A stretch of DNA of 64,000 bases from Candidatus Xenobia bacterium (GCA_045863235.1 BTUM01000007.1:64001-128000), one strand, 5' to 3'; shown: positions 8,391-32,238, counted from the stretch's first letter. Program-made: numbers and translations. The notes: generated by a model not told the origin, from the sequence alone.

Positions 8391-9602
8391 ATGCGTTTGA
8401 TCGTCCTGTTGCTGCTGCTTTTGACCCTGCCACTTTCGGCCCAGACCGATAGCCCCGAGGAGCCGCGCGACGACGGACGGCACTCGGCGGGTCGGGTTCG
8501 ACTCGGAGGGGACGAAGGATTCGGAGCCGGCACCGCCACCTCCGATCCCACCGCACTGGAGGGCCCAAGTCGGATCGAGACGGTGCTGTTCAACTCCCGT
8601 CGCTTCAACACGGTGGATCTGACGCTGCACTATCTGCGCCGACTCTCCGACAATCAGGACTTGCTGCTGGAAGTGCAGGGGGGGCCAACTTCCCTGGGGG
8701 GCGATTTCAGCTACAGTTTCAGCGACCACCTCACCGTGAACGTCTCTGGCTCATCCGGCCGCAATCCGGCTTTCGAGCAGGGCCTGACCCGTGTCTACCT
8801 GGCCAACGGCGAAGAGCCCTACTTTCGTTCCCTGGGAGGAGGACTGGAGTACTCCGACCAGCCCTGCGACGAGCTCGGCCTGGCCGCGGCGCTGAATTAT
8901 CAGGCCGTTACGGTCGGTGACAGCCTGCTCGGGCCGGTGGTGGCCCCCCCGGTCGACCAGTTGGGCAACCGGCTGACCTTTTCGCCTGGCGGCCACGACG
9001 AGCTGCTGACCCTCAACTTCGTGGGCCAGCTCAACATCCTCGACCAGATGGTCAATCCCAGTGACGGCACTCGTCTTCGTTTTCAGCTCGAGCAAGCCAT
9101 CCCGGTGGGGGACAGCCAGATCACCTCCACCACCGCGGCAGCCAACCTGGCCCAGCTCGTCCCGATGCCCGGCCCCGGAGAAGGCTCCAGCTACCTGCTG
9201 ATCAACTTGCAGGGTGGAGCCATCGGCGGCGATGTTCCCCCGTATCGGGCCTTCAACCTGGGCGGCTCCAACTCCGTGCGCGGCTATCAGCTCGGCGGCC
9301 TGAGCACGGGCTCATCCTTCCTGCAGGCCACCCTGGAGTATCGCGGTTCCCTGACGAGATTCGAGTTGCTCGGCCACGAGCTCGAGCTCAAGGGCGTGCT
9401 CTTCTTTGACTACGGATCCGACCTGGGCACGGCCGACCGGGTGCTGGGTCAGCCGGGCGTGGCCCGCCAGAAGCCGGGGGAGGGGATTGGCTACGGCGCG
9501 GGTCTCTACTTCTTCAGTGACGTCGGGTTGTTTCGGCTGGAGGCGGGTTGGAACCAGCAGGGTCAGAATCAGCTCTTCTTCACGCTGGGGGACCGCTTCT
9601 GA
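8391..9602 (+). CDS. Omp85/BamA-TamA family outer membrane beta-barrel protein
   Basis: Signal peptide; FNLGGSNSVRGY motif, FFDYGSDLG, GYGAG and C-terminal LGDRF. Confidence 0.88.
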   Translation: MRLIVLLLLLLTLPLSAQTDSPEEPRDDGRHSAGRVRLGGDEGFGAGTATSDPTALEGPSRIETVLFNSRRFNTVDLTLHYLRRLSDNQDLLLEVQGGPTSLGGDFSYSFSDHLTVNVSGSSGRNPAFEQGLTRVYLANGEEPYFRSLGGGLEYSDQPCDELGLAAALNYQAVTVGDSLLGPVVAPPVDQLGNRLTFSPGGHDELLTLNFVGQLNILDQMVNPSDGTRLRFQLEQAIPVGDSQITSTTAAANLAQLVPMPGPGEGSSYLLINLQGGAIGGDVPPYRAFNLGGSNSVRGYQLGGLSTGSSFLQATLEYRGSLTRFELLGHELELKGVLFFDYGSDLGTADRVLGQPGVARQKPGEGIGYGAGLYFFSDVGLFRLEAGWNQQGQNQLFFTLGDRF

Positions 9603-9805
9603 GCTTGAAAGCGAGCCAGCACATCGGCCAGTTGATGGAGGAGAATCTGGTTGTCACTGGCGGAGCGCACACCGATTCTGAGATAGAAGTGGCTGTCTCC
9701 AAACTTCGCGCTGGCGTCCTTGAGCAGCAGCGTCCTGGATGACTTCGGCATGGAGGACTTCCTGTCCGGCGTTCCCCGGCCCGCCGCCAGGATGATGGCC
9801 TTCAT
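9569..9805 (-). pseudogene. N-terminal remnant of a LicC/PntC-like nucleotidyltransferase
   Basis: MKAIILAAGRGT...MPK start, then loss of similarity; only 78 codons. Confidence 0.55.
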
Positions 9806-9868
9806 GAGCCAGGGGTTCACGAGATCTGCCCGAACTCTTGCCGCTTGGGAATTCTCTATCCCGTGACC

Positions 9869-10558
9869 ATGAGGCGGGCGCGGCCGGGCGGGCGCTATCA
9901 GGTGGCCGGTCGGGAGAGGTGTGTGCCCGAGAACCTTCTGTTTCCCCGCCCGGCTTACTTCACGTGCGAGCAGGTGCTCACAGAGTTGGCCCGTCTGCTC
10001 GAGATGGTGGGGCGGCGATTCGATGAGGCTGGAATCTGCTGGTGGGCTACTCAGGGCACCCTGGTCGGAGCCTTGCGCCATCAGGGGGTGATCCCCTGGG
10101 ACCACGACGTGGACCTGAACCTGATGCTCGAGCAACTACCGCTTTTGCTCGAGTTGGAAGCAGAGTTCGACCGGTTGGGCCTGCGCCTGAAAAAGGCGGC
10201 CGGTGGATACAAGCTCGGATACGCCCGCTGGCCACTTTTCCCTTATCTCGACCTGGTGCCGATGGCTCAGCGCGATGCCGTCTGGCAACTGGCCTTTCCT
10301 CTCGACCAGGAAGGGCGACCGACTTTCCGCAAACATCTGCAGTGGCCCCAGGAGGCTATCAGGGACCAGGATCTGTTCCCTCTCCAGCGCTGGCCGTTTG
10401 AAGGCTTTGAAGTCTGGGTGCCCGCTCGGGCTCGGGAGTTCGCCCGGCAAATGTATGGGCCGGAGTGCCTGAGCTCGATTCATTGCCCACGATTTCCATG
10501 GCTTATCAATCATTATTGGGATTCAATTCTCTTTGCTTTGCGGTTGACGAGAGGCTAG
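9869..10558 (+). CDS. LicD family phosphotransferase
   Basis: WWATQGTLVGALRHQGVIPWDHDVDL, LFPL..WPFEG and MYG motifs; start uncertain (9845-9869). Confidence 0.9.
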   Translation: MRRARPGGRYQVAGRERCVPENLLFPRPAYFTCEQVLTELARLLEMVGRRFDEAGICWWATQGTLVGALRHQGVIPWDHDVDLNLMLEQLPLLLELEAEFDRLGLRLKKAAGGYKLGYARWPLFPYLDLVPMAQRDAVWQLAFPLDQEGRPTFRKHLQWPQEAIRDQDLFPLQRWPFEGFEVWVPARAREFARQMYGPECLSSIHCPRFPWLINHYWDSILFALRLTRG

Positions 10559-10588
10559 CAACTCAGATGCTCGAAGGGCACTCGGGAC

Positions 10589-11491
10589 GTGAACGAGCTG
10601 GTCTATACCTGGGTGGATGGCGCCGCGGAAGGGTACGAAGAGCTTTGCCGTCGCTACACCAGCAGTCCGCAAGACTTGAATCCCGAGCGTTATCGCGATC
10701 CCTACGAGCTGCTGCGCTACAGCCTGCGCTCGGTAGAGCAGTTCGTGCCCTGGATCGAGCGGGTGCTCCTCTTTACCTGCCGTCCGCAGGTGCCGGACTG
10801 GCTCTCGTCCGAGGTTACCGTCGTTCATCACGATGAGATCATCGACTCGCGCTTTCTCCCAACCTTCAGTCCCAACGTCATCGAGAGCTATCTGCACCTT
10901 CTCCCGCTCCAGAGCCCCTTCTTTCTTTACGCCAATGACGACTTTTTCTTTGGAGCCCCGGTCGCTCGGGAGGACTTTCTGACGCCCGGGGGCAGGCTGC
11001 GCGTCTACGGCACCTTGATGGGAGAGCAACTGGCCTGGAGAATCAGGGACCGCACTCAGGTCCCCTCCTTTGGATTCCTCGAGCACACCCCCTATCCGAT
11101 TCATCGCGAGCTCTGGGGGAAGATGCTCGAGCACTACGCTCGGGACGTGGAGGCGACTCGTCGCAATCGGTTCCGCTGCAGCGAGGACTTGCGGATGGAT
11201 CGCCTCTGGCGCTACTTCCTCTTGAGCCAGCATCGAGCGCGCTGCTCGGTCGTCTCGGGTTGGGAGGTGGTGCGGGGAGCGGCCTTCCTCAAACTGCACA
11301 ACGATGCTCCTCGACTCGAGAGGCAACTGGCCAACGTCGGCAAGCGCTTTCTCTGTCTCAACGACGACCAGGGCCCCTCTCCGGCTCCCTCGGCCCAGGC
11401 CGTGGTCAGGGAGTTCCTCGAGAGGAGCTATCCCTGGCCCTCTCGATGGGAAAAGCGGCCAGCCATCGGCCTCGAAAGTGGCGGATCATGA
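10589..11491 (+). CDS. Stealth family hexose-1-phosphate transferase
   Basis: CR1 VYTWVDG; CR2 ELLRYSLRS...LPTFSPNVIE...FLYANDDFFFG; CR3 HTPYP; CR4 FLCLNDD. Confidence 0.92.
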   Translation: MNELVYTWVDGAAEGYEELCRRYTSSPQDLNPERYRDPYELLRYSLRSVEQFVPWIERVLLFTCRPQVPDWLSSEVTVVHHDEIIDSRFLPTFSPNVIESYLHLLPLQSPFFLYANDDFFFGAPVAREDFLTPGGRLRVYGTLMGEQLAWRIRDRTQVPSFGFLEHTPYPIHRELWGKMLEHYARDVEATRRNRFRCSEDLRMDRLWRYFLLSQHRARCSVVSGWEVVRGAAFLKLHNDAPRLERQLANVGKRFLCLNDDQGPSPAPSAQAVVREFLERSYPWPSRWEKRPAIGLESGGS

Positions 11492-12371
11492 TGGTGTTGG
11501 CGCGTCGCTCGTTGTTGCCCTGGCCGGAGTTGACTCTCCCGAGCGAGGTTTGGCGGTAGAGGTCCGCCAGAATCGGGTGCTGGATCGGAAAGCGCGCAAA
11601 CGGCTCCACCCAGCGCTCCGAGCGACAGTGAGCCGAGATCCAGACGTCATCGACGTAAAACGCGGCCTCGGGAGCATGGCTGTAGTCGTGCACCTCGGGC
11701 CCGAAGTAGCCCGGCTCGACTCGATAACCCGAGAAGCCCTGCAGGACGTCGATTCTCACCGGCTTTCGCAGGCGGCTGCACTTGAGGGGAGTCGGGGGCA
11801 GGCCGGCCAGGTTGCTCCATAACGTGGTGGGTCGGTCGGTCAGGTCGGACGGGACCCGCCACCCGCTCAGACCCGTGGCTCGAGAGTCGAACCGCTCGAG
11901 ATGGGCCAGAAAGCCAGGCGGATAGAGCCGGTCGTCGTCCACAACCAGCAGCGGGGTGCGCTCGGGAAGATCGAGGGCTGGCAGAAGCTTGGTGGCTGGA
12001 CCCAGGTCCGGGCAGCGCACCAATTCGACCGAGCGCAGGCAAGTCAGCCATTCAGGAAGGCGGTAAGCGACCTGCTCACGCCGACTGTGCTCGGGAAGGT
12101 GCAGTCGGATGCGGGCCGGGACCGGATCCTGGGCCAGCAGGCTCTTCAGGGTCCAGTGCAGGTGGGGGAGTCGGCTGGGAAGGGTGGTGAGACACGCGAT
12201 GAGACTGCTCTTGCGAGCTTGGGCCCAGCGCTGGTCCAGTCTCTCGAGAGCAAGACGACGCAGGCGGTTGAGGTCGAGCAGGTCTCGAATCAGGTCCCCT
12301 CCGGTAAGATGGTTGCAGGCCGCCAATCCGGCCCAGGTGGCCAGGGCGAGCCCGGCCCAGGTGCGGTTCAT
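11406..12371 (-). CDS. GT-A fold glycosyltransferase
   Basis: LTTLPSRL, DLGPATKLLP, VVDDDRLYP and VDDVWIS motifs; N-terminal hydrophobic anchor. Confidence 0.8.
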   Translation of the reverse strand: MNRTWAGLALATWAGLAACNHLTGGDLIRDLLDLNRLRRLALERLDQRWAQARKSSLIACLTTLPSRLPHLHWTLKSLLAQDPVPARIRLHLPEHSRREQVAYRLPEWLTCLRSVELVRCPDLGPATKLLPALDLPERTPLLVVDDDRLYPPGFLAHLERFDSRATGLSGWRVPSDLTDRPTTLWSNLAGLPPTPLKCSRLRKPVRIDVLQGFSGYRVEPGYFGPEVHDYSHAPEAAFYVDDVWISAHCRSERWVEPFARFPIQHPILADLYRQTSLGRVNSGQGNNERRANTIMIRHFRGRWLAAFPIERARDSSSRGTP

Positions 12372-12473
12372 GACGACGCTTGTTCTGCCCACGGTGAAAG
12401 TGGCCTTCACCAGACCCTGGCGCGGAGGGTCGACCTGGCCAGGAATTCCGGTCGCGTCGGTAAACCTGGCCGG

Positions 12474-14048
12474 GTGACCAGGGCGCGAAGGCTACGGGAG
12501 ATACTGGCGGGCAGCCAGTTGGAGTTCCTGCTGGAAGCCCACAACGCTCTCGCAGCGCGGATTGTGGAAGAGTCGGGCTTTGCCGGGATCTGGGCCAGCG
12601 GATTGGCCCTTTCGTCCCAGTTTGGGGTGCGAGACTCCAATGAAGCGAGTTGGACGCAGGTGGTCGACATGGTCGAATTCATGGTTGATGCCACCAGCAT
12701 TCCCATCCTGCTCGACGGAGACACCGGTTACGGGAATTTCAACAATCTTCGTCGGCTCATTCGTAAGCTCGAGCAGCGCTCGGTGGCCGGGGTGTGTATC
12801 GAGGACAAGCTGTTTCCCAAGAGCAACAGCCTGATGGGGGAGCACCATCAACTGTGCAGCCTGGATGAGTTCTGTGGAAAGATCAAGGCGGGTAAGGACA
12901 GCCAGACAGACCCGGACTTTTGCCTGATCGCTCGAGTCGAGGCCCTGGTGGCTGGTCAGAGCCTGAGCGAGGCCCTGCTTCGTGCTGAGGCGTATCGCCA
13001 GGCCGGAGCGGACGCCATCTTGATTCATTCTTGCCGGGCCCAGCCCGACGAAGTGCTTGCATTTGCTCGCGAGTGGGCCGGAAGAGGCCCCCTGGTCATC
13101 GTTCCCACCCGCTACTCGAGCACCCCGGTCGAGGTGTTTCGCCGGGCCAACATTCAGCTGATCATCTGGGCCAACCATATGCTTCGGGCCTCCATCGCGG
13201 CCATGCAGTCGGCTGCTGGTCGGATCAAGGCTGAGGAAAGCACCCTGCAGGTCGAGGATGAGATCGCACCACTATCGGAAGTGTTTCGACTTCAGGGTGC
13301 GGATGAGCTGGTGGCGGCTGAGAAGCTTTACCTCGGACGTCCTCTTCGGGCCGTGTTGCTGGCCGCCACTCGAGGCGAGATGAACGGTCTGACCTCGGAC
13401 AGACCCAAAGGGATGATCCCCATTGCCGGCAAGCCTCTGCTGAGTTGGACGGTGGACGCCCTCAAGGCCCTGGGGGCTCATCCCATCACCGTGGTGGCCG
13501 GCTGGCAGCCGGACGCGGTGGATCTGCCGGGTGTGGAGCGGGTGGTGAACGATGCCCACGCCTCCAGCGGCGAATTGGGCTCGCTCGCCCAGGCCCGGGA
13601 GGCACTGAGCCACGATGTCCTGGTGCTGTACGGCGATCTGCTGCTTCGCAGCTACATCCTGCGTGAGCTTGCCGGGAGCACGGCCGAAGTCACGGTGGTG
13701 GTGGATTCCGACCTTGAGGGGCGCCGCAAGACGGGTCACCAGGACTACGCCCGCTGTGATCGGCCCGACGACCGCGGCGTCCTTCAACCCGTGGTGAGGC
13801 TCGTGGAGATCTCCGAGCGACCTCAGGAGGTCCACGGACGTTTCATCGGAGCGGCCAGCTTTCGAGCCGCCGGGGTCACCTGGCTGCGGGAGGCGCTGCT
13901 CGAGTTGCCTCCCAATCTTGGTCTGCCCGATCTCCTGAATCACCTGGTGGGGCGGGGCAATCCAGTGCGCGTGCTCTATATTCACGGCCACTGGTTGGAC
14001 GTCAATACCGTGGAGGATCTACCTCAGGCAGGCAGCTTCCTGGCATAA
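12474..14048 (+). CDS. aepX: Phosphoenolpyruvate mutase fused to a C-terminal nucleotidyltransferase (PntC-like)
   Basis: EAHNAL, WASGL, LDGDTGYGN and the PepM signature EDKLFPKSNS (EDK-X5-NS); C-terminal LLAATRG...DRPKGM and YGDLL NTase motifs. Confidence 0.95.
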   Translation: MTRARRLREILAGSQLEFLLEAHNALAARIVEESGFAGIWASGLALSSQFGVRDSNEASWTQVVDMVEFMVDATSIPILLDGDTGYGNFNNLRRLIRKLEQRSVAGVCIEDKLFPKSNSLMGEHHQLCSLDEFCGKIKAGKDSQTDPDFCLIARVEALVAGQSLSEALLRAEAYRQAGADAILIHSCRAQPDEVLAFAREWAGRGPLVIVPTRYSSTPVEVFRRANIQLIIWANHMLRASIAAMQSAAGRIKAEESTLQVEDEIAPLSEVFRLQGADELVAAEKLYLGRPLRAVLLAATRGEMNGLTSDRPKGMIPIAGKPLLSWTVDALKALGAHPITVVAGWQPDAVDLPGVERVVNDAHASSGELGSLAQAREALSHDVLVLYGDLLLRSYILRELAGSTAEVTVVVDSDLEGRRKTGHQDYARCDRPDDRGVLQPVVRLVEISERPQEVHGRFIGAASFRAAGVTWLREALLELPPNLGLPDLLNHLVGRGNPVRVLYIHGHWLDVNTVEDLPQAGSFLA

Positions 14049-14074
14049 AAAAGCCCCCCGCGGAGCGGAGGGCC
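14046..14074 (-). terminator. Intrinsic terminator
   Basis: Minus strand GCCCTCCGC-TCC-GCGGGGGGC followed by a T-run, between convergent genes. Confidence 0.65.
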
Positions 14075-14102
14075 TTGTTGTTGAACCGAGACCGAGCGAG
14101 TG

Positions 14103-15737: not shown

Positions 15738-15831
15738 AGTGGATCCCTCCCTTGTCGTGAAGCCGCCTGGTTCGCAGTGTGGACGGCAATCACCTGCAGG
15801 GGCCGATTCTCCCACGCCCGAACCTGGCCGG

Positions 15832-16848
15832 ATGCCGTGGCTGTTTTTCAGCAAGCTTGGCAATCCGGCCCTCGAGGAGCTGATCAGAGCCCTGCGAGGT
15901 CTGGGGCTTGCAGTCGAGGCCGTGCATCCAGGTCTCGCCTGGTCCCCCCTTTCGCGAGCGGTCCCGGTGCTGCCGGTCGGCCCTCGATGGCTTGCACAAC
16001 TGCACGGGCCACTGCTCGAAGGACTGCGCCCCGAGGTCGTGGTCTACTCCTATCCTGACCAGGCACCGCTGGCGCGACGCTTCCCAGGCGCGAGCAAGGT
16101 TTACTACGTGCAAGACGATTTTCGAGCTTACAATTATCCGGACGCCCGGCTGCGAGCCTGGGAGGAAGAGCTCCTGCCGCGAATCGACTTGTTGGTGGTC
16201 GTCTCCGAGGCCCTGGCCGACTCGTATCGAGAGAGATACAAGTTTGAAGGCACGATTTTGGTTGCTCCACTGGCCGTCCCAGAGCGTTTCTTGCCGGCCG
16301 CTTGCCCCCCCCGCCTCTCTCGAGGCGGAAAAGTCGGGGTTCTCGGCCGGATCTCGAGCCGTCTGCGCCTGGGCTGGCTGCGACAGGCAGTGGAGCGGCT
16401 CAACTGGATGCGCCTCGAACTGGTTGGTGACGTGGAGGCCTCCGAGTTGATGGCCGAGGACCGCTACCACCTGCGCTACCTGCAGCAGTGCCCTCGCTGC
16501 CGGTTTTATGGTTGGAAGCCTTTCGCCCACCTGTTTGAGCGGGCTTCCCAGCTTGATCTGGCGCTCCTGCCGTACAGCCCTCGAAGTGTCAATCCCTGCG
16601 GCTCGGCCTATCGATTCTATATCCACCTTGCTTACGGGGCCCCCATGCTGGCCACCCCGGGCGTGGCTCAGCTTGAGGAGTATCAGCCTCTGGTTCAGAT
16701 TTGCCGCAGCAGCGATGAGTTCTTGAGCAGGTTGGACGAGCTGGCCAGGCGGGGCTTTGATGACGGCCTCCATACGCAACGTTGGGAAGCCGCTCGGGCC
16801 AATACCTGGAGTCATCGGGCCCGGGCTCTACTGGAGGCTCTGGGGTAA
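15832..16848 (+). CDS. GT-B (GT4-like) glycosyltransferase
   Basis: YYVQDDF, DLLVVVSEAL, FYGWKP, DLALLPY and NTWSHRA motifs. Confidence 0.8.
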   Translation: MPWLFFSKLGNPALEELIRALRGLGLAVEAVHPGLAWSPLSRAVPVLPVGPRWLAQLHGPLLEGLRPEVVVYSYPDQAPLARRFPGASKVYYVQDDFRAYNYPDARLRAWEEELLPRIDLLVVVSEALADSYRERYKFEGTILVAPLAVPERFLPAACPPRLSRGGKVGVLGRISSRLRLGWLRQAVERLNWMRLELVGDVEASELMAEDRYHLRYLQQCPRCRFYGWKPFAHLFERASQLDLALLPYSPRSVNPCGSAYRFYIHLAYGAPMLATPGVAQLEEYQPLVQICRSSDEFLSRLDELARRGFDDGLHTQRWEAARANTWSHRARALLEALG

Positions 16849-16869
16849 GAATCGCCCGCCACCAGGACC

Positions 16870-17691
16870 TCAGGGTCGGGTCGGGAGGTCGCCCTGGCCT
16901 TGAGGGGCGCGCAGCCGCCAGGCCAGCACATCCAGCCAGCGGTGCAGCCAGTAGAATGCCCGCACCAGCGGGTCGGCAGCCATCGGGATCAGGTTGCTGA
17001 CCTTGTTGCGCGTGCGCAGAAAAGGTACCGGGTCGGGCGAGCTGATGTCGAGGGCGTCCCGGGTCAAGGTAACCAGTCCGCGCTCCTGGGCATCGTAAAG
17101 CAACAGGCTCAGAAGGGCCTGCTCGAACTGGTGCACCGCCAGTCGAGCTCCCGGAGGGTTCTGGATGCAGCCATTGAGAGCCCACTGCTTCCACCGCTCC
17201 GTCAGGGCTCGAACCCATTCGCGGCGGCCATCGAAAGCGCACACTCCGCTGGCCCGGGTGCGCAGGCGGGCCAGCTCAGGGTTCACTCCCGTGAGCGTCA
17301 ACGGCCCGGGAAGCACCCGAATGGGGCCACCCCCTCCAAACGGGGTATACACCCCCGTGCGCTCCACCTCCCGGGTGATCCGGTCGAGAGGGCCAAGTAC
17401 GACGGTTGCTGAGTCCAGCCAGAGGACAGGCCCCTGATAGTGACTGACCAGGTCGGCCACGATGATAGGTTTCCAGGCGTAGGCGCCCCTTTCGAGTCGG
17501 ACGTGATCCGGATATCGGTCAAAGGGAAAGACGCGCAACTCATAGCGTTCTGACAACCACCGGCGCTGTTGGGCCGTCATGCCCAGATCGTAGAGCACCA
17601 GTTGATCAGACAGGCCAGCGCGCTCGAGGCTGAGCAGGAACTGACGCAGCGACCGATAGTAGACCCGGTCAGCCCCCGAGACGATCAGCAC
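16870..17691 (-). CDS. DUF1647-like putative glycosyltransferase
   Basis: IVSGAD, LYDLGM, YAWKPIIV, VLWLDSA and HQFEQALLS motifs; start overlaps the upstream stop. Confidence 0.7.
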   Translation of the reverse strand: MLIVSGADRVYYRSLRQFLLSLERAGLSDQLVLYDLGMTAQQRRWLSERYELRVFPFDRYPDHVRLERGAYAWKPIIVADLVSHYQGPVLWLDSATVVLGPLDRITREVERTGVYTPFGGGGPIRVLPGPLTLTGVNPELARLRTRASGVCAFDGRREWVRALTERWKQWALNGCIQNPPGARLAVHQFEQALLSLLLYDAQERGLVTLTRDALDISSPDPVPFLRTRNKVSNLIPMAADPLVRAFYWLHRWLDVLAWRLRAPQGQGDLPTRP

Positions 17692-18368
17692 AGTCTGGGA
17701 TGCAGAGCACGGGCGCGAGCCAGTTGCCTGGCATCGTCGATCTCGGCCCACAGCAGGTCCTGCACTAACGGGCACGCAATCGGGTGGGTGGGCGCGCACC
17801 CGACCATCCCGTGGCTTTCGTAGTGCTGGCCAGGTTGGCACAGGAGCTTGGAATAGAGATTCTGGCTCACCCGCGAGATACCGACTAGCTCACCGGTCAC
17901 GTTGCTCAGTCGGCTGCGGTCTTTTGACATCGATACCAGCCAGCCGTCGCGCGCCTCCACCCAGACTTCGTCGCCCGCCCCGGTGGGGCCGGACAGCAGC
18001 ACGGCGTCTGGATGAGAGAGTTGGAGCAAGACCTCGAGCGCACGCCGCTCATAGATGAGGTCCGATTCGAGCAGCAGAAAGTCGCCGGTCAAGTGTTCGC
18101 GTGCCGCCGCGAGGCTCTGCAGACTGCCGGTGCTGGCATAGTCAGCGTTGTGAACCAGGCGCACCCCCTCCAGCTCCTGGTAAAAGGAGGCAAGATGGCC
18201 CGTGACCACCACCACCTCGGTAATGCCCACCGATCGCAGCCGCTCCAACGACTCCGCCACGATGGGTAGCTCCCCCAGGCGGAGGAATCCCTTCGGGTAA
18301 GGCAGGGGCCCCAGTCGAGTCCCTTGTCCGGCGGCCAGGATGCAGGCCAGGTTCGGCATGGTGCTCAC
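17685..18368 (-). CDS. Phosphocholine/phosphonate cytidylyltransferase (LicC/PntC family)
   Basis: ILAAGQGTRL..PKG, NADYASTGSLQSL, LLESDLIY, GELVGI and WAEIDD motifs. Confidence 0.9.
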   Translation of the reverse strand: MSTMPNLACILAAGQGTRLGPLPYPKGFLRLGELPIVAESLERLRSVGITEVVVVTGHLASFYQELEGVRLVHNADYASTGSLQSLAAAREHLTGDFLLLESDLIYERRALEVLLQLSHPDAVLLSGPTGAGDEVWVEARDGWLVSMSKDRSRLSNVTGELVGISRVSQNLYSKLLCQPGQHYESHGMVGCAPTHPIACPLVQDLLWAEIDDARQLARARALHPRLC

Positions 18369-20152
18369 GGCAGTCGGGCCAGCTGCTGAAACTGGGGACT
18401 GGAATAGAGCAGCTCCTGGTAGGTGCCCCTGGCTCGCACCTGGCCCTCTTCCAGCAGGTAGATCTGCTCACAGGCCTGCACTGTCGTGAGTCGATGAGCG
18501 ATGACCAGCAGCGTCTTGGAGTGGACCAGTTCGGCCAGGGCCTCCAGGAACCAGCGCTCGGTCTGATTGTCGAGCGCACTGGTGGCTTCGTCCAGGATTA
18601 AGAGCTCGGGCTCGTGATAGAGGGCGCGGGCGATGCCGATGCGCTGGCGCTCGCCCCCGCTCAGGGCCACTCCGCGCTCGCCCAGGACCGCGTCGTAGCC
18701 CTCGGGTCGGGCGGCGATGAATTCGTGCAGATGGGCTGCCCGGGCAGCCCGCTCGACAGCCAGCTCGTCGATCTCCTCGTCTGCCAGGCCGAGGGCGATG
18801 TTGCGACGGATCGTGTCGTCGGCCAGGTAAACCTCCTGGGGGACGTAACCGATGCATTGATGCCAACGTGTCAGGTCCTCGGGTCGCAGCGGTTGCCCGT
18901 CGACGAGCAAGGTGCCCTCTCCCGGCGTCAATAGCCCGGCCACCAGGTCGGCCACGGTGGTCTTACCCGAGCCGGTTCGACCCACCAGGGCCACCGAGCT
19001 GTGTCGGGGAATGGTCAGGTCGAGGTCGTGCACAGCGGGAGCGACGGCCCCCGGGTAGGTGAATGCGACGCGGCGGAGCTCGATGGCTCGGGTGAAGGGC
19101 AGGGGGGGGTCCCCTTCTGCGGGCGTCAGGGGCTCGGGGTCGGCCAGCTCGCGGTAGATTTCCTCCACCAGGGGAAGCCGGAACTGCAGGTCCACCAGGT
19201 CGTCATAAAGGCACTGCAGGCACGGCACGAGCCGCCATGTGGCCATGACGTAGGCCCCCACCAGGGGAAGGGCCGCGCGACTGGCCTGGGTGATGCAGAG
19301 GTATACAAGAACGGTGACGATAGCAGCCAGGGCCAGAATTTCGGTGCAGGGCCGGGCGACCTCGCCCAGTGTCAGTCGGTGGAGGAGCAGCCTGTTCTCG
19401 CGCTCAAAGGCGCGTCGGTAGCTCTCCAGGAAGTGGCGCCTGCGAGGCAGGGCTTTGGCCTCCCGCAGGGCCGACAGACTCTCTGCCGCGATCTTTGCCC
19501 GCTGGTATCCTGCCTTGTGGCACTCGTTGCCCAATCGGTCCAGATTTCGGTTGAAAAATCGGTAGATGGCCATGAACAGCATGCTCAGGACCAGACCGGT
19601 GGTCAAAGCCACCCGATAGTCGAGCCAGAGCAGCCCGGCACAGAGAAACAGCGAGGTCATGGCTCGCATTGCCATGGTAGCCAGGGTTCGTACCACTTTG
19701 TGGACCAGCTCATCTACCTGCTGCAGTACCACCCTCGTCAACCGACTTGTGTTCTGACCAAGATGCCAGACATGCGGACGGTGAAGGTAGCGGCGCAGCA
19801 GATTGAGCGACAGGTCGGAGCTGACCTCGGTGGTCAAACGGTAGATGAACCACCAGGTCAGCGTGTTGAGAAAGCTGGTCAGAGCGAAAAGGGTCAGGAA
19901 CAAGACTCCCAGCAGGGCAAAGAAGCTCTCGAAGCTGGCGCAACCCGACCAGGTGTAGAAGCGGTTCAGCGTAGCGTTCTGTTGGACTAAATCCGGGTCG
20001 GCGGCTACTGCGAGCAGGGGCACCAGGCCGGCCACTCCCGACAATTCAGTGCTTGCGTTGACAAGGGTGCACAGGCCAAGACTGAGGGCTTTGCGGCGCG
20101 CGGCGGGAGAAAGAATGGCTCGAACCATTCGGAATGCTTCAAACACCGCCAT
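18365..20152 (-). CDS. ABC exporter, fused permease/ATPase (PglK/HetA-like flippase)
   Basis: Six-TM N-terminal half; GRTGSGKT, LSGGERQR, ILDEATSALD and IAHRL motifs. Confidence 0.92.
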   Translation of the reverse strand: MAVFEAFRMVRAILSPAARRKALSLGLCTLVNASTELSGVAGLVPLLAVAADPDLVQQNATLNRFYTWSGCASFESFFALLGVLFLTLFALTSFLNTLTWWFIYRLTTEVSSDLSLNLLRRYLHRPHVWHLGQNTSRLTRVVLQQVDELVHKVVRTLATMAMRAMTSLFLCAGLLWLDYRVALTTGLVLSMLFMAIYRFFNRNLDRLGNECHKAGYQRAKIAAESLSALREAKALPRRRHFLESYRRAFERENRLLLHRLTLGEVARPCTEILALAAIVTVLVYLCITQASRAALPLVGAYVMATWRLVPCLQCLYDDLVDLQFRLPLVEEIYRELADPEPLTPAEGDPPLPFTRAIELRRVAFTYPGAVAPAVHDLDLTIPRHSSVALVGRTGSGKTTVADLVAGLLTPGEGTLLVDGQPLRPEDLTRWHQCIGYVPQEVYLADDTIRRNIALGLADEEIDELAVERAARAAHLHEFIAARPEGYDAVLGERGVALSGGERQRIGIARALYHEPELLILDEATSALDNQTERWFLEALAELVHSKTLLVIAHRLTTVQACEQIYLLEEGQVRARGTYQELLYSSPQFQQLARLP

Positions 20153-20193
20153 GATCGCGCGAGGTTCGACGCGGAAGGGGCGATTCCGCCTCG

Positions 20194-20799
20194 TCAGTTT
20201 CGCTGGCGGACGAAGTAGCCCGTGGCCCGGTCACGCACGGCGTCCGAGCCCAGGTATCCATAGTGGTGCTCGAGCAGCTCCCGGGGCCGGGCAGGTAGCC
20301 ACGTTTCCTGGCCCAGGAAGGTTGCGCTCTGCAAGGGGAAAACGAACTCGTCGGGAATCTTGGAGCGCTCGCCCGGAAAGGTGCCTCGCTCGAGGGGGAG
20401 GAGCCAGCTCTGCTCGGCTCGGTAGAAATAGAGGTCGGCTTCCCATCCGTCCCACTCGACGTAGAGCTTGGGGCCGAGGTGTCGCGCGCTGGTGTCCTGG
20501 AGCCGAAAGCCCGGCGGAAGACGAGAAGCGGCCTTCTTCACACGGGTGTAGTCCGACTCACGCAGTCCGAAGTCGACATCCACGTCGCCTCTGATGATCT
20601 GGCCTTCTCGATGCTGGCCGAGCAGAGTGCCGAAGGCCAGCCAGTAGTCCACCCCCGTCTCGCGCAGGAAGGCGTTGGTGGTGACGAACAGTCGGCCCAG
20701 CTGCCGGGCCACCGCCTCACGGTGGCTTGCCCCGAGCAGGAGGGGGTTGTAGCGGACGTGGCGCCAGAGCAGCCTGGCGGTTCGTGGCAGCCTGATCAT
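20194..20799 (-). CDS. LicD family phosphotransferase
   Basis: YWLAFGTLLGQHRE..IIRGDVDVDFG, VFPL and LEHHYG motifs. Confidence 0.88.
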   Translation of the reverse strand: MIRLPRTARLLWRHVRYNPLLLGASHREAVARQLGRLFVTTNAFLRETGVDYWLAFGTLLGQHREGQIIRGDVDVDFGLRESDYTRVKKAASRLPPGFRLQDTSARHLGPKLYVEWDGWEADLYFYRAEQSWLLPLERGTFPGERSKIPDEFVFPLQSATFLGQETWLPARPRELLEHHYGYLGSDAVRDRATGYFVRQRN

Positions 20800-21575
20800 A
20801 CCCGGTAGCGATAGGTCCTGCCCGGCTCGCGCTCGCAGTCAGGAGGATAGCTCTTGCGCTTGGCAGCAAAGTATTCTTCGCGCCGATCCCCCTCGCGACG
20901 CAGGCCGTAGGTGATGTACAGGATGCGCCGTGCCTGCGAGCTGTCGTTGGGACCCGACCGGTGGGGCACGAACGAGTCGAAGAAGATGGTATCTCCCGGG
21001 GCCGCTTCCAGAGGCTGAAACTCGAGCCCCAACTCGCTCAGGGGCTCGTGCATCGGCCCGAGCAATCCTTCGCGGTGGCGCCCCGGGACGACTTCCAGGC
21101 AACCATTGCCCGGGGTGGCTCGATCGATGGCCACCATGGCCGTCAGGTGGATCGAGCCCCAGGCGTCCCAACCGGCCTGAACGTCCTGGTGGGGGGCAAA
21201 GCCGTCCCCTCCGGGAAGCTTGAAGTTCAACTTGTCCTTAAACAAGACCAGGCTCTCGCCCATGAGTTGCTCGGCGGTTTCGAGCAGCGCGCCCGTGCAG
21301 AGCTCCCGCAGATCGGGGTGGTAGGGAAGGAAGTTTTCGGCCCGGCAGAGCAAGCGTTGGTGGGGAATTCTTCGGTGAGGCTCGTAGTAGAGCATCCATT
21401 TGCCCTGGGTCTCGGGCCAGCTCTCCAACTCACCCACCCACTCTCGCAGAGGCTCGGCAGGCAAGAATCCGCTCAGGTGAAGGTAGCCGTCTCGTCGGTA
21501 ATGCTCGACCTGATCAGGGGTCAGACTCACGGCTGGAGGTTTGACGCGCCTGGGCATTTCCTGCCAGGCGCTCAT
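20796..21575 (-). CDS. Fe(II)/2-oxoglutarate dioxygenase, PhyH family, PhnY/TmpA-like
   Basis: LFKDKLNFKLPGGDGFAPHQD and HRSGPN..RR motifs; C-terminal YFAAKRKSYPPDCERE tail resembles PhnY; alternative start GTG 21530. Confidence 0.8.
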   Translation of the reverse strand: MSAWQEMPRRVKPPAVSLTPDQVEHYRRDGYLHLSGFLPAEPLREWVGELESWPETQGKWMLYYEPHRRIPHQRLLCRAENFLPYHPDLRELCTGALLETAEQLMGESLVLFKDKLNFKLPGGDGFAPHQDVQAGWDAWGSIHLTAMVAIDRATPGNGCLEVVPGRHREGLLGPMHEPLSELGLEFQPLEAAPGDTIFFDSFVPHRSGPNDSSQARRILYITYGLRREGDRREEYFAAKRKSYPPDCEREPGRTYRYRV

Positions 21576-22383
21576 AGAGCCCGGGTCCTACCAGGGCCCA
21601 GCCCAGAGCTACCGCCCAGCCAGCTGGCACGTCCACCAGGTAGTGGAATCGCGCGTAAACCGTGGCGAAAGCAATCGAGAGAGCGATGAAGAGATAAAGA
21701 CCGGTCAGGCCCGAGCGGGCACGCCAGGCGGCCAGCGCAGCGGCGGTGGACCAGGCGACATGACTTGAAGGAAAGGCGGCGCCGTCGACGGCTCCGTGAT
21801 CGACCAGGCGATGGCACATATGCCAGAAGAAGCCCTGGCAGGCCGGCTCGAGGGCTGGCCAGAGCGGACGGGGACCCTGCACCGGAAAGAAGACTGCCAC
21901 GAGATAGCAGGAGTAGAGCGTGGCCAGGCCCGTGAAAGTGGCCTGCTCGGCCGCTCCGGGGCGGCCCAGTTGGCGCAACCTCAGGGTCAGCAACGGGAGC
22001 AGAAGGTAGTAAAGCAGATAGCAGAGGTGCAGCCATTCGGAGAGCAGTCGATAGGGGAGCACCTGGCTCAGCCAGGCCGCCGGAGAGGCTCCAAAGAGCC
22101 GGGTCTCCCAGGCCAGCACGGTGGCGTCGTAATAAACCCCTGACAGGATGCGGTTCTGGATCTCTAATTCGCTGTACATGGGGATCAGGAGGAAGAAGGG
22201 GTAGAGTCGGACCAGTCCGCCGCCAAGACGCGGGATCAGCCAGATGACCGCCAGGTGCCACAGGATACGGAGCGTGAGCTCTGCGGTGCTATGCCCGGCC
22301 GGCGGGTGGAACAGGCCCAGGGCCAGAAAGCCGGCAGTCAGGGCCAGGTAGGCCCGCACCAGCAGATCGACCGGATCGCTCAT
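21514..22383 (-). CDS. PAP2/AUR1 (inositol-phosphorylceramide synthase-like) membrane protein
   Basis: Multi-TM; FPVQGPR, AAFPSSHV and TVYARFHYLVD catalytic motifs. Confidence 0.85.
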   Translation of the reverse strand: MSDPVDLLVRAYLALTAGFLALGLFHPPAGHSTAELTLRILWHLAVIWLIPRLGGGLVRLYPFFLLIPMYSELEIQNRILSGVYYDATVLAWETRLFGASPAAWLSQVLPYRLLSEWLHLCYLLYYLLLPLLTLRLRQLGRPGAAEQATFTGLATLYSCYLVAVFFPVQGPRPLWPALEPACQGFFWHMCHRLVDHGAVDGAAFPSSHVAWSTAAALAAWRARSGLTGLYLFIALSIAFATVYARFHYLVDVPAGWAVALGWALVGPGLYERLAGNAQARQTSSRESDP

Positions 22384-23417
22384 CGCTTTCGCACCAGGAA
22401 GAAGGGGTCGTGGACGATTCGGCGGGCATCGATGAGGACCAGGTCATCCTCCACCACCAGATGGTGCAGCCCGTCGGGATAGGGCCAGCACTTCCGGGGA
22501 GAGAGCCGCAGCACGGGCTTCTCGTGAAAGGTCTCTGGAGTCAGCTCGAGCACCTCGTTGATCACTACGGCGTCGCCATAGCTCGAGGAGCAATCCTGGG
22601 CCGGGCGATAGAGGCGGCCGTCGAGCCGAAAAGGCTTGCCGGCCGAGCGCGTGGAGCGGATGTCCTGTTTGAGCGGGCTCTGAGCATGGGGCTGAAAAGG
22701 GCCCAGCGGGGTCGCTGCAAAGGCAGCTTTGAGCCGGTAAGCGCCATGCCGGCTGGGACCGGTGTAGAGCAGCCACCAGCGGCCTTGATGCTCGAACAAC
22801 ACCGGATCCACGACTTGCGCGTCCTCGAGCAGAACCCGTTCCAGGATCAGGCCGTCTTGCACCCGATAGAGCTTGAGTCGCTGCTCGGCCAGGCTCTCCG
22901 GCAGGCAGTAGAGCTGGTCGTTCCAGGTGAGCAGGTAGGGGAATGAATGGTGCGAGCCTTCCAGGCGGGGAATGCGCTGGTTGTTCTCCGTAATCTCGAC
23001 CAGTCGGGCCGGCCTTCCGTGACGGTGCTCCTCGACCATCAGGTGCCAGGCGTGATCTTGTCGGAAAGCGAAGGGGTCGGCCTCATAGGTGAGCGGAGCG
23101 AGCTCGGGGCGCCAGGCCCACTTGAGGTGAGGGAGCTCGGAGAGGCTCTGAAGGCGATGGAGGGCGTAGCCAACTGCCCAGATGTCGTAAGTGAAAGCTT
23201 CGCGATAGAGATACTCGAGCCCGCGTCGTGCCTCGAACAGGGCTGTGAGGAATCGCTGGGGCCAGCTGATTCGAGCCGCCGGTTGAGCTCGGTGGAACTG
23301 CCCGGCCGCGCGCCGCAGAGTGCCCTGGTAGCTCCAGTGGGGGCGGAACCAGGCCTCGAACCCGTCCTCGCGCACGACCTTGATGGGCTTTCGTCGCCAG
23401 TACTCTTGAATGGTCAC
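22380..23417 (-). CDS. Beta-propeller protein resembling the GINT1 N-terminal domain
   Basis: ADPF, HHSFPY, LPES, VDP...WWL, PHAQSP, RSAG, RPAQDC..YG and GLHH motifs; GTGA coupling to the upstream gene. Confidence 0.75.
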   Translation of the reverse strand: MTIQEYWRRKPIKVVREDGFEAWFRPHWSYQGTLRRAAGQFHRAQPAARISWPQRFLTALFEARRGLEYLYREAFTYDIWAVGYALHRLQSLSELPHLKWAWRPELAPLTYEADPFAFRQDHAWHLMVEEHRHGRPARLVEITENNQRIPRLEGSHHSFPYLLTWNDQLYCLPESLAEQRLKLYRVQDGLILERVLLEDAQVVDPVLFEHQGRWWLLYTGPSRHGAYRLKAAFAATPLGPFQPHAQSPLKQDIRSTRSAGKPFRLDGRLYRPAQDCSSSYGDAVVINEVLELTPETFHEKPVLRLSPRKCWPYPDGLHHLVVEDDLVLIDARRIVHDPFFLVRKR

Positions 23418-24481
23418 GCCCGCTCCAGCAGGCGGTAGGTCTTCTCGCGCCGAGCTCCCAGGGCGTTCAGCATGGCCTGCATGGGGCGGTTGTCGGCCAG
23501 CACCCAGGAAGCCTCCAGTCGCTCCCACGGGATGCGCGCGTCCAGTTTTACCAGCGCCTCGATCATGGCCCCAGCTACGTCAAGCTGTCGAGCCTCGCGC
23601 ACGATCCCGATGGCATAGGCTCGATAGTTGCGGATCCAGCTGCGGCGCGTGAGGTAGTCGTAGAGAAGGCGAAGGGTCAATCGTCCCTGGCTTCGGGTCA
23701 GCATGGGGTTGAGATCGGGCAGGGTGATGAGAGCGCCCACCGTGGCGCCCTGATGCTCGGCGAACAGCACGGTCTCCGGGCGGATCAAGAGCAAGCTGAG
23801 GACCACGAACTCCCGCATCATGGGCTCGTCGAATTCTTCGAAGCCCCAGTTGTCGGCCAGCGCGTTGTTGAAGACACTTGCCAGCCTGCGGGTGTCGCGA
23901 ACCCGGTGCCAGGGATCCATGGATCGCACCGTCACCCCCTGCTCGGCCGCCCGGCGGGCCCGGCCTCGCATCAGGTCTTGCCTGACCTCGCCCCGCTGGA
24001 AGCTGTAGGTATGCATCTCCTGCAGACTGCGAAAGCCGGCTTGCTCGAGCAACTCGGCGTAGTAGGGTGGGTGGTAGGCCAGCAAGAAGCTAGGCGGGGT
24101 GTCGAAGCCATCGACCAGCAGGCCCGGGTAGGGGTCCTCCTGGCGAAAATGGTAGGGGCCCCGCAGGGGCAGTCCGGGAAAAGTCTCGCAGGCCTGCTTG
24201 AAGAGTTCGTTCAGAGCCTGGTGCTGCCCCGGCAGGCACTCCAGAAAGCCGAAGTGGAGAGCTTGCTGATGGCGCTTGACGCCCAGGTGAGCCACCGGCT
24301 CGCCGTTATGCCAGGCCACGTAGAAGGCGCGCTCGGGGTCGTCGAGCCCACCCATCAGCTGTCGGTAGTGCTGCCAGAGCGGAGGCACCCAGGCCGGATG
24401 GCGGCCCGGGTAGATGGCTCGCGCGAGGCTCCAGAAAGCCAGACGCTCGCGCTCGGTGCGCACGCGGGTGATGCTCGTCAA
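23414..24481 (-). CDS. YghO-like GNAT acyltransferase (family that includes bacterial ceramide synthase)
   Basis: WVPPL, FGFLEC, GLLVDGFDTPP..YHPPYY, NWGF, LPDLN, SWVLADN..M and KTYR motifs. Confidence 0.8.
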   Translation of the reverse strand: MTSITRVRTERERLAFWSLARAIYPGRHPAWVPPLWQHYRQLMGGLDDPERAFYVAWHNGEPVAHLGVKRHQQALHFGFLECLPGQHQALNELFKQACETFPGLPLRGPYHFRQEDPYPGLLVDGFDTPPSFLLAYHPPYYAELLEQAGFRSLQEMHTYSFQRGEVRQDLMRGRARRAAEQGVTVRSMDPWHRVRDTRRLASVFNNALADNWGFEEFDEPMMREFVVLSLLLIRPETVLFAEHQGATVGALITLPDLNPMLTRSQGRLTLRLLYDYLTRRSWIRNYRAYAIGIVREARQLDVAGAMIEALVKLDARIPWERLEASWVLADNRPMQAMLNALGARREKTYRLLERA

Positions 24482-24518: not shown

Positions 24519-25448
24519 TCAGGCCGAGCGGGTCAAGGGCTCCAATCGACGCATGTAGCGGGCCAGGGTCTGGATGGTGGGACCGTAGCCCTTGTGATAG
24601 ATCGCGTACTCGAGCTCGTAGCCAAGCTTGCCGGCGCTCTCGAGCCGCTCGTTCGGATCGGGGGCCAGGCAACGATCGAGGGTTGCGGCCAGCATCGGGG
24701 TCAGGCCCGGGGGACTGCTCAGCCGGGTGCTCAGAAGCCGGGTGAGGGTTTCGCTCAAGCTCTCTCCCTCCACCAGGAAGGGATTCCGGCCCGTCAACAG
24801 CTCGTAGTAGACGACACCCAGGCTGAAGAGGTCGCTGCGACCGTCGGTGACCTGGCAGCTGGCCTGCTCGGGCGCCATGTACTCTACCCGGCCATAGACC
24901 TGCTCGCCTTCTTTTGACTCGAGGTAGTGGGCCGCCTTGGCCACCCCGAAGTCTGCCAGCTTGACCTCGCCTTCGCCGGAAATCAGGATATTGTTGGGCG
25001 ACACGTCACGATGGACCAGACCCAGGGGCTGGCCCTGCTCGTCGGTGCGCTCGTGAGCATACTCCAGGGCCCGGGCCAGCCGGCTGACGATGAAGGTGGC
25101 CAGCTCGACCGGCACGGTCTTTCCAGCGTGCAGATCGAGAAAGTGCCTCAGGCTCATCCCCTCGATCAGCTCCATGGCGATATAGGCTCCAAAGTCCGCC
25201 CGGCCCAGCTGGTAAATTTGCACGATGTTGGGGTGGATCAGGTTGGCCACCAGACGAGCTTCCCCCACGAACATCTGGCTGAACTCGCTCGACTCGCTCA
25301 ACCAGGGGTGCAACACCTTGAGGGCAACCCGCTTGGAGAAGCCGTCGGCTCCCAGTTGCTGAGCCTCGTAAACGGTGCCCATGCCTCCCGAAGCGAGCTC
25401 GCGGATGATCCGGTAGCGAGTTTCTTGAACGAAATACTGAGGAGTCAC
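24519..25448 (-). CDS. Hanks-type Ser/Thr protein kinase (soluble)
   Basis: GGMGTVY, VALK, HRDVSPNN, DFG, YMAPE and DLFSLG motifs. Confidence 0.95.
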   Translation of the reverse strand: MTPQYFVQETRYRIIRELASGGMGTVYEAQQLGADGFSKRVALKVLHPWLSESSEFSQMFVGEARLVANLIHPNIVQIYQLGRADFGAYIAMELIEGMSLRHFLDLHAGKTVPVELATFIVSRLARALEYAHERTDEQGQPLGLVHRDVSPNNILISGEGEVKLADFGVAKAAHYLESKEGEQVYGRVEYMAPEQASCQVTDGRSDLFSLGVVYYELLTGRNPFLVEGESLSETLTRLLSTRLSSPPGLTPMLAATLDRCLAPDPNERLESAGKLGYELEYAIYHKGYGPTIQTLARYMRRLEPLTRSA

Positions 25449-25530
25449 GACAGAGCTTGACTTCGATTCAAGCGCTCGCGGTCCTTCTTTTCGGGTTTCC
25501 TTCAGGCAGGCAGGCTAGTCTGATGTCAAC

Positions 25531-30610: not shown

Positions 30611-30699
30611 CCTGCGTTTTCAATTTCGTGGTGGCTGTCTGGAAGGAGTCCCCCTCGGATGCCGAATCATGCGGCTGGATTTTTTTTCAAGGAGCTTCG

Positions 30700-32067: not shown

Positions 32068-32075
32068 CTCGTTCT

Positions 32076-32166
32076 CTGCGTTCGAGCCAGTCCGACTGGC
32101 TTGAACGCAGGGTCGTTCGTCTCAGTCAAGCCAGTCACAGGCTCTCTGCTTGTGCTGGCTTGACTG
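32076..32166. repeat. Two adjacent REP-like hairpins sharing an AGCCAG/CTGGCT core
   Basis: 16-bp stem at 32076-32110 (one G-U pair) and perfect 12-bp stem CAGTCAAGCCAG/CTGGCTTGACTG at 32123-32166. Confidence 0.75.
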
Positions 32167-32238
32167 CGTGTTGGGCTGGAAAAGGAGTTTGCCCTGAATG
32201 CCGAATCATGGGGCTGGATTTTTTTTCAAGGAGCTCTG

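Follow-up and report, generated by a model that had tools for sequence, protein, structure and literature searches.

Which lipid or glycan might be built by a bacterial operon in which a ceramide-synthase-like acyltransferase and a phosphonate cytidylyltransferase are encoded together? The question is raised by eight genes at positions 16870..24481, all on the minus strand, of a 64,000-nucleotide stretch of a Candidatus Xenobia bacterium (GCA_045863235.1 BTUM01000007.1:64001-128000; this whole stretch is "the window" below). Protein matches name the host lineage as uncultured Ca. Eremiobacterota/Vulcanimicrobiota. The host genome (G000; 8.36 Mb, 97.6% complete) was compared with a set of 61 genomes, 44 of them in its class; its genus comprises five genomes, two of which are about 65% complete. 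An earlier, sequence-only reading of this DNA held that an AUR1-like enzyme puts (hydroxy)aminoethylphosphonate directly onto ceramide, with a glycosylated derivative as a fallback. We favour, with a probability of roughly 0.45, an operon that would make inositol-phosphoceramide carrying sugars, with a PntC-activated phosphonate placed on the sugar head by LicD. The predicted product, a phosphonate-substituted glycosyl-inositol-phosphoceramide, is close to the earlier fallback, while the direct head-group version is not supported.

Translation of the window returned the eight open reading frames where the sequence-only reading had placed them, and its account of co-oriented genes with mostly overlapping stop and start codons proved accurate: six of the seven junctions overlap, four through a 4-nt (A/G)TGA coupling and the other two by 44 nt and 7 nt, and only the LicD/ABC junction leaves a gap (41 nt). 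In order of transcription the genes encode a GNAT-family acyltransferase, a GINT1-like propeller, a PAP2 phosphotransferase, a PhyH-family dioxygenase, a LicD-family protein, an ABC exporter, PntC and a DUF1647 protein. Two congeners, G002 and G003, keep this gene order (identity 73-95%) and were the only matches when the genome contigs were scanned for the operon; in three genomes GNAT, PAP2, PhyH and LicD show translational coupling.

Ceramide and inositol genes

Ceramide synthesis by the host is well supported as a prediction from gene context: the genome encodes two alpha-oxoamine synthases (AOS) and two YghO-like GNATs, which upholds the ceramide capacity claimed earlier. The first operon gene (23414..24481; a weak GNAT match, 8e-4) encodes a predicted YghO/bCerS-like N-acyltransferase that aligns over its full length with E. 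coli BL21 YghO (26% identity, 355 aa, E 1e-31). A second host GNAT, on contig C10, is 43% identical to the first and likewise aligns full length with YghO at 26%; two copies occur only in the three operon carriers. E. coli YghO is a bacterial ceramide synthase (bCerS), and the yghO gene of BL21 adjoins an annotated spt operon. No PDB entry matched the operon GNAT at E<=1, and NCBIfam has no model that covers either this protein or E. coli YghO. In a quick midpoint-rooted tree, built without Caulobacter or Bacteroides sequences, host-type GNATs formed a well-supported clade of their own, apart from the YghO clade.

GNAT was found in 16 of the 61 genomes and an oxoamine synthase (E<=1e-60) in 24, of which 16 fall within the 44 class genomes; within the class, the genomes with GNAT and those with an oxoamine synthase are the identical 16. 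An oxoamine synthase domain lies inside 10 of the 14 GNAT loci fetched; no such domain appears in the fetched stretch at the loci of G040 and G035 or at the second G003 locus, and the locus of G027 shows a KS only. In five genomes of a sister genus GNAT stands head-to-head with a KS-AOS fusion, and a KDSR-like short-chain reductase follows downstream of GNAT in that genus.

Of the two host synthases, one is a stand-alone enzyme on C10, near the second GNAT, and the other is a KS-AT-ACP-AOS fusion of 1318 aa, a predicted serine palmitoyltransferase (SPT) equivalent. The window holds the 5' part of the fusion gene (1..2065, minus strand) and its PLP domain falls just beyond the edge, so the earlier caveat that no SPT gene is in the window was half wrong. 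INO1 (inositol-3-phosphate synthase) lies about 1.2 kb downstream of the fusion, outside the window. Both synthases carry the PLP lysine motif on the oxoamine synthase fold (GTLSK and GTFSK), both score under the BioF, Kbl and HemA cut-offs, and the fusion's PLP domain has its top PDB match in a broad-range AONS/KBL enzyme, level with SPT. Searched for spt, as the sequence-only reading had suggested, the genome yields two SPT-like synthases, neither of which reaches the SPT cut-off; both may be SPT-like in function, though not classed as members of the family.

The stand-alone synthase has Pro in place of an Arg of Sphingobacterium SPT (GSP vs GSR) and is the first gene of an operon (C10:50773-64275) with FabD, KS, FabG, HMG-CoA synthase and two enoyl-CoA hydratases, the gene set of a polyketide beta-branching cassette. 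This cassette, parts of which are kept in G001, G002 and G003, adjoins a GT32, an HpnA-like reductase, an FtsX-like permease and the second GNAT, and it may provide a route to a second, methyl-branched ceramide. Upstream of the KS-AOS fusion are a B12/radical-SAM-like and a thymidylate-kinase-like gene (2391-4327, minus strand); the pair is also found upstream of the fusion in G002 and beside INO1 in G004, and dTMP-kinase-like genes also occur in the E. coli spt locus.

The linkage of a full-length YghO-like GNAT to an oxoamine synthase resembles the Spt-bCerS-CerR ceramide pathway of Caulobacter and E. coli (for Caulobacter, PMC11324152 and PMC11087976). The host differs in the 26% identity, the separate clade and the two GNAT/AOS sets per genome, and in that relatives pair the GNAT with a KDSR-like reductase, whereas the operon has no reductase. 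Spt-like genes have been predicted in 40 phyla (PMC11334938), and the name 'Eremiobacter' is absent from the main text of that paper.

The third operon gene (21514..22383; PAP2_3, 4e-15) encodes an AUR1/BT_1522-like phosphotransferase with the motifs FPSSH and HYLVD, its PAP2_3 domain carrying the His/His/Asp triad known for its role in these enzymes. A four-sequence profile retrieved AUR1 as its top PDB match (E 4e-4); the best NCBIfam match, NF052609, reached 22.5 bits, far under the cut-off of 480. Orthologs occur in 14 of the 61 genomes, all 14 with GNAT and 13 with INO1 (the exception, G003, is 64% complete), and only nine with pepM. Neither pepM nor ppd was found in the remaining five, four of which are 96-98% complete, although only two of these four also pass a 5% contamination bar. 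Because PAP2 follows INO1 rather than pepM, the operon enzyme is likely an inositol-phosphoceramide synthase rather than a maker of ceramide-aminoethylphosphonate.

PAP2 adjoins INO1 in three genomes; an operon of AOS, CDP-alcohol transferase, PAP2 and INO1 occurs in G027 and G029, and an INO1-PAP2 pair in G025. In the sister genus, genes for a GT2-like protein, a CDP-alcohol transferase (CDP-OH), PAP2 and an LPG-synthase-like membrane protein face GNAT. These PIP-synthase-like CDP-alcohol transferase/INO1 operons, and the persistence of orthologs in five genomes without detectable pepM or ppd, leave the earlier claim of direct phosphonate transfer to ceramide by the AUR1-like enzyme without support. 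C101 carries the host ortholog of the CDP-OH gene, which scores best with inositol-phosphate lipid synthases, below cut-off. A PimA ortholog lies within the G003 locus, at the GT4 site (E 3e-46; next match 8e-25), and the host ortholog of PimA is on C38.

A close parallel is found in Bacteroides thetaiotaomicron BT_1522-BT_1526, which comprises an AUR1-like PAP2, a CDP-alcohol PIP synthase and an inositol-3-phosphate synthase; BT_1522 makes phosphoinositol dihydroceramide, the tested set being BT_1522/1523/1526 (PMC9246714), and a BT_1521-like LPG-synthase membrane protein stands beside PAP2 in the sister genus. The host system differs in belonging to another phylum, in the prediction of its base from a polyketide synthase (PKS)-oxoamine synthase fusion, in having no PgpA found, in its additional glycosyl and phosphonyl tailoring genes, and in having INO1 and the PIP synthase outside the operon.

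Phosphonate, LicD and PhyH genes

The sequence-only reading drew on a pepM gene, and its presence is borne out. The window encodes a phosphoenolpyruvate mutase, PepM, with a C-terminal cytidylyltransferase fusion (12471..14048, start approximate, plus strand), which scores 367 bits against TIGR02320, above cut-off, and has an intact EDKLFPKSNS motif; ppd is present but remote, alone on C22 (288 bits against a cut-off of 312). The ppd gene (C22:4581-6098) has an interdomain linker with several tandem Gly/Ala/Ser-rich short units, and no phosphonate genes as neighbours. The operon NTP transferase (17685..18368; PF12804, NTP_transf_3, 4e-18) is a true PntC, as had been proposed: its best PDB match is Treponema denticola PntC 6PD1 (E 6e-34), compared with 1e-11 for LicC, and its orthologs lie between ppd and pepM in five sister-genus genomes and beside pepM in G040.

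No aminoethylphosphonate (AEP) transaminase was found in the host genome, where the best TIGR03301 match is 8e-8 and the AEP transaminase of a relative gave no tblastn match; the enzyme is present in 5/5 tested sister-genus pepM genomes and in G040. The aminoethyl identity of the head group is therefore in doubt, and with it the (hydroxy)aminoethyl group named earlier. An iron alcohol dehydrogenase was considered as a route to hydroxyethylphosphonate and not accepted, being a 29% match only and outside the locus. In G004, which has no detected AEP transaminase, a GINT1-like gene, an aldo-keto-reductase-like frame (labelled from its translation) and pepM stand in a row (L089, 5130-8736), and the reductase could be a phosphonoacetaldehyde reductase. 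On an Azospirillum plasmid, ppd, a PLP aminotransferase, a PhyH/class V aminotransferase fusion and GNAT form one run (L156, 7520-13066).

The predicted role of the operon LicD (20194..20799; PF04991, 2e-10) is to place the activated phosphonate, or else phosphoethanolamine, on a sugar. Its orthologs occur in 9/61 genomes, and these are precisely the genomes that combine PAP2 with pepM, although the nine come from only three genera and are not independent; operon-type LicD was found in 0/9 pepM-positive, PAP2-negative genomes. There are contrasts within genera: G017 has PAP2 and no detected pepM or LicD, and G004 retains pepM and ppd with no detected PAP2 or LicD. The close relative G001, described below, is a further informative contrast. 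G040, from another order, holds a PAP2-Stealth-LicD-ABC-ABC-GNAT cluster and also a ppd-AEP transaminase-PntC-pepM operon. A triad of NTP transferase, PhyH and LicD is present on an unrelated Rhizobium plasmid, its LicD barely similar to that of the operon. Mf1, a LicD protein that accepts CDP-ethanolamine, adds phosphocholine or phosphoethanolamine to a glycolipid sugar (PMC11982090).

A second LicD-family protein is encoded at 9845..10558 (plus strand), next to the remnant of a cytidylyltransferase/CobD-like PLP fusion (9602..9820, minus strand) from which residues ~20-542 of 593 are gone. A contig of run X1, which may be the source sample, reads across the deletion junction, and a contig of run X2, from another study, has 921 extra letters at 9768/9769. 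The fusion could be a maker of CDP-ethanolamine or a source of the phosphonate amine. A Gloeothece plasmid also carries it close to LicD and glycosyltransferases, and the 18 kb seen there contain no pepM; in G040, with its LicD and full AEP operon, the fusion was not found.

The fourth operon gene (20796..21557; PhyH, 6e-24) encodes an Fe/2-oxoglutarate dioxygenase, PhnY*-like, that reaches 197 bits against the methylphosphonate hydroxylase model NF052437 (cut-off 500). The host genome has no TIGR03276-level match to PhnZ (best 21 bits), so a catabolic PhnY/PhnZ role of the operon enzyme is unlikely and was rejected. The earlier label PhnY-like stands as a family resemblance, and no placement in a phosphonate clade was obtained. 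The neighbours of the best 80 of 558 metagenome PhyH loci, many of them short, included pepM at 14, ppd at 15 and AEP-transaminase-like genes (some weak) at 18, and nothing PhnZ-like. The flanking frames scanned (72/96) came from 58 of the 80 loci.

An HpnG-like gene lies directly upstream of PhyH at 10 scanned loci, one of them in a clear hopanoid cluster; the host genome has a squalene-hopene cyclase, and a short G040 contig has PhyH following a KDSR-like reductase gene. The hopanoid-linked enzymes form a well-supported PhnY*-like PhyH clade with a few relatives (L199 7299-13120; also L157, L159, L165, L171, L183, L187, L193, L207 and L211), right behind HpnG-like genes and ahead of HpnN or HpnA, and are candidate side-chain hydroxylases for highly hydroxylated bacteriohopanepolyols; a literature search met no obvious description of them.

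Several parts of this gene set are familiar from phosphonyl-tailoring clusters. The PntC work in T. denticola describes PntC with LicD-like neighbours (PMC6697681); the Burkholderia group 1 cluster has PepM-PntC, a second PntC and a 2-oxoglutarate oxygenase, and is predicted to yield a 1-hydroxy-AEP lipid (PMC8942020). The same paper names the B. stolpii ppm cluster GCF 761, and so corrects the earlier remark that no genes were known to be assigned to the Bacteriovorax stolpii sphingophosphonolipids. The window shares with these clusters a PepM-PntC fusion, a second PntC, a 2-oxoglutarate dioxygenase and LicD-like transferases; it departs from them in its remote ppd, the AEP transaminase that was not found and a locus without a CDP-alcohol transferase, and in that ceramide and inositol-phosphoceramide genes share the transcription unit.

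The sugar-side genes and the island

The second operon gene (22380..23417; GINT1_N PF24793, 2e-28) encodes a 345-aa protein with PF24793 only, modelled (pLDDT 87) as a five-bladed beta-propeller. Plant GINT1 has a C-terminal catalytic GT64 domain, which is absent here, so the earlier label GINT1-like is right for the N-terminal propeller family and not for the catalytic domain. In fold searches GH130 mannoside phosphorylases and the glycoside hydrolase BT_0996 scored Z 19, tied with GH43/62/159, and since the matches tie among glycosidase and phosphorylase families, no function of the propeller follows. The gene is directly upstream of INO1 in G007, G031 and G011. In the close relative G001, window positions 9598-22375 are absent and GNAT is absent separately, while the GINT1-like gene is present at this site; the locus is therefore an accessory island, grown around an older propeller gene. 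The protein was rejected as the island's glycosyltransferase, being a propeller only and predating the island.

Other genes are candidates for glycan assembly and export. The DUF1647 protein (16870..17691; 7e-8) is a putative GT-A-fold glycosyltransferase, and the MsbA/PglK-like ABC exporter (18365..20152; family match) is a predicted glycolipid flippase; both are accessory, and the G003 locus lacks them together with a GT4-like glycosyltransferase gene (15739..16848, plus strand; family match) convergent with the operon. Orthologs of the exporter at 42-46% are near GNAT or INO1 loci in G040, G003, G004 and G027. A GT2-like glycosyltransferase (11406..12314, minus strand; Atlas score 0.98, PF00535 on 28-37% of cluster members) has orthologs (47-50%) upstream of PAP2 in five genomes, where they head the CDP-OH-PAP2 operon of the sister genus. 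A Stealth-family sugar-phosphate transferase (10589..11491, plus strand) has a homolog that adjoins LicD, PAP2 and GNAT in G040; it and the second LicD were assigned by family match.

A Ser/Thr kinase gene stops only 37 nt 5' of the GNAT gene, and the transcription unit may therefore number nine genes. The kinase consists of a kinase domain only, and an MGDG-synthase-like GT28 gene diverges from it (24519-26676); the kinase is at the same site in G001-G003, and the MGDG-synthase-like gene in G001, G002 and G004. An RNA-library run was rejected as evidence of transcription, as its contigs span all 30 bins at low, even depth. Positions 14103-15863 and 30628-34200 encode large predicted lipoproteins that contain Gly/Ala/Asn repeats or Ig-like domains; the former lies within the island in G000 and G002 and not in G003. 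A BrxC/D-like ATPase gene followed by a DEAD helicase gene (36032-39450) is a possible defence pair.

Competing readings and what the locus may mean

Under the favoured reading, the KS-AT-ACP-oxoamine synthase fusion, 15 kb away, would extend an acyl chain and condense it with what is presumably serine, and the GNAT would N-acylate the base, as YghO homology and synteny suggest. INO1 and the C101 PIP-synthase-like enzyme, both encoded in the genome, would supply phosphatidylinositol (PI), from which PAP2 would move inositol-phosphate onto ceramide, and the PimA-like, GT2, GT4, DUF1647 and Stealth enzymes would assemble a short glycan. PepM and the remote Ppd would yield phosphonoacetaldehyde, PhyH may hydroxylate C1, PntC would form the CMP-phosphonate, LicD would transfer the phosphonate to a sugar and the ABC exporter would flip the product.

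A number of observations weigh against this scheme. Against the SPT family NF047600 (cut-off 640) the fusion scores 315 bits and the C10 enzyme 299, and no PgpA-type phosphatase was found in the host genome. An AEP transaminase was not found in 5/5 genomes of the genus, its two less complete members included. The co-occurrence of LicD with PAP2 and pepM rests on three genera, and five sister-genus genomes have their LicD ortholog at a distance from pepM, in one operon with the cytidylyltransferase/CobD-like fusion; that fusion is intact in G002 and deleted differently in G003 and the host. None of the best 80 of 558 PhyH loci, many of which are short, has a GNAT, PAP2, INO1, AOS or LicD neighbour, and in a quick tree the operon PhyH sat on a long branch with its base not resolved and no phosphonate clade placement. 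The acceptor could instead be a glycerolipid PI-mannoside.

A more elaborate version, possible though rather unlikely as a whole, is a eukaryote-like glycosyl-inositol-phosphoceramide on a sphingoid base made by one PKS-oxoamine synthase protein, its glycan capped by LicD with a hydroxylated phosphonate whose amine arises by a route free of AEP transaminase, for example from phosphonoalanine decarboxylated by a CobD-like domain that is joined to a cytidylyltransferase of its own. If true, this would be a bacterial counterpart of the AEP-bearing glycolipids of glycosylphosphatidylinositol (GPI) type, with LicD as a phosphonyl-glycan transferase.

It is unlikely that two pathways share one variable surface locus, GNAT and PAP2 making a plain inositol-phosphoceramide while PntC, PhyH, the LicD proteins, Stealth and the ABC exporter phosphonylate another glycan (O-antigen, capsule or PI-mannoside). 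The PntC-PhyH-LicD module does exist without ceramide genes; the island is rich in indels, as the two separate losses in G001 illustrate; phosphonoglycan clusters usually contain LicD and glycosyltransferases (PMC6697681); and G004 has pepM and ppd without PAP2 or operon-type LicD. Such a split is hard to square, however, with the translational coupling of GNAT, PAP2, PhyH and LicD in three genomes, the independent clustering of PAP2, Stealth, LicD, ABC and GNAT in G040, and the failure to find operon-type LicD in any of the nine pepM-positive, PAP2-negative genomes.

Less likely again is a phosphoethanolamine substituent, made from phosphoserine through the cytidylyltransferase/CobD-like fusion, with PhyH hydroxylating the lipid and the tagging branch partly decayed in the host. 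This would suit the licD-fusion operon of five genomes, the Gloeothece plasmid, the use of CDP-ethanolamine by Mf1 (PMC11982090), the broken fusion in two of the three operon carriers, and the PhyH genes behind a KDSR-like reductase in G040 and in hopanoid clusters. Yet G040 combines LicD and a full AEP operon with no fusion found, both LicD genes, PntC, pepM and ppd are still open frames in the host, and the operon cytidylyltransferase is of PntC type.

The direct transfer of (hydroxy)aminoethylphosphonate to ceramide by PAP2, giving a sphingophosphonolipid of Bacteriovorax type, now appears improbable. PAP2-type enzymes can be relaxed about their head group, the operon PAP2 is just 35-45% identical to its INO1-linked orthologs, so that its donor could have changed, and PAP2, PhyH, LicD and PntC are presumably co-transcribed, as they lie in one operon. 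On the other hand, the orthologs track INO1 and persist in genomes without pepM or ppd, no AEP transaminase was found, and the reaction needs a diacylglyceryl-phosphonate donor, while the locus lacks a CDP-alcohol transferase and the only three in the genome are all elsewhere. Finally, an amide lipid other than ceramide, with the PKS-oxoamine synthase using another amino acid and the GNAT acylating an amino-ketone metabolite, is very improbable, as the co-location of CDP-OH, AUR1-like and INO1 genes requires a 1-hydroxyl acceptor such as serine provides, even though the SPT scores below cut-off, the AONS/KBL match tied with SPT and the separate GNAT clade would accommodate it.

Each module of the phosphonate-substituted glycosyl-inositol-phosphoceramide pathway has precedent, and the combination was not found in our literature search, outside which most subscription papers fell; within that search we met no bacterial KS-AOS ceramide entry enzyme, no sphingolipids in this phylum and no phosphonylated bacterial inositol-ceramide. 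AEP-substituted glycolipids and GPI glycans are found in molluscs and Trypanosoma cruzi (PMC6994554). Like these, the predicted product would have a phosphonate attached to a sugar in a glycan linked to inositol or ceramide, a likeness of predicted chemistry rather than of demonstrated homology, and the known examples are eukaryotic whereas the host is bacterial. If the favoured reading is true, inositol sphingolipids would extend to an uncultured phylum, with the PKS-oxoamine synthase fusion as their proposed entry enzyme, and the locus would offer a small, cloneable gene set for the transfer of AEP to a glycan, a route called unknown in a 2019 review (PMC6994554).

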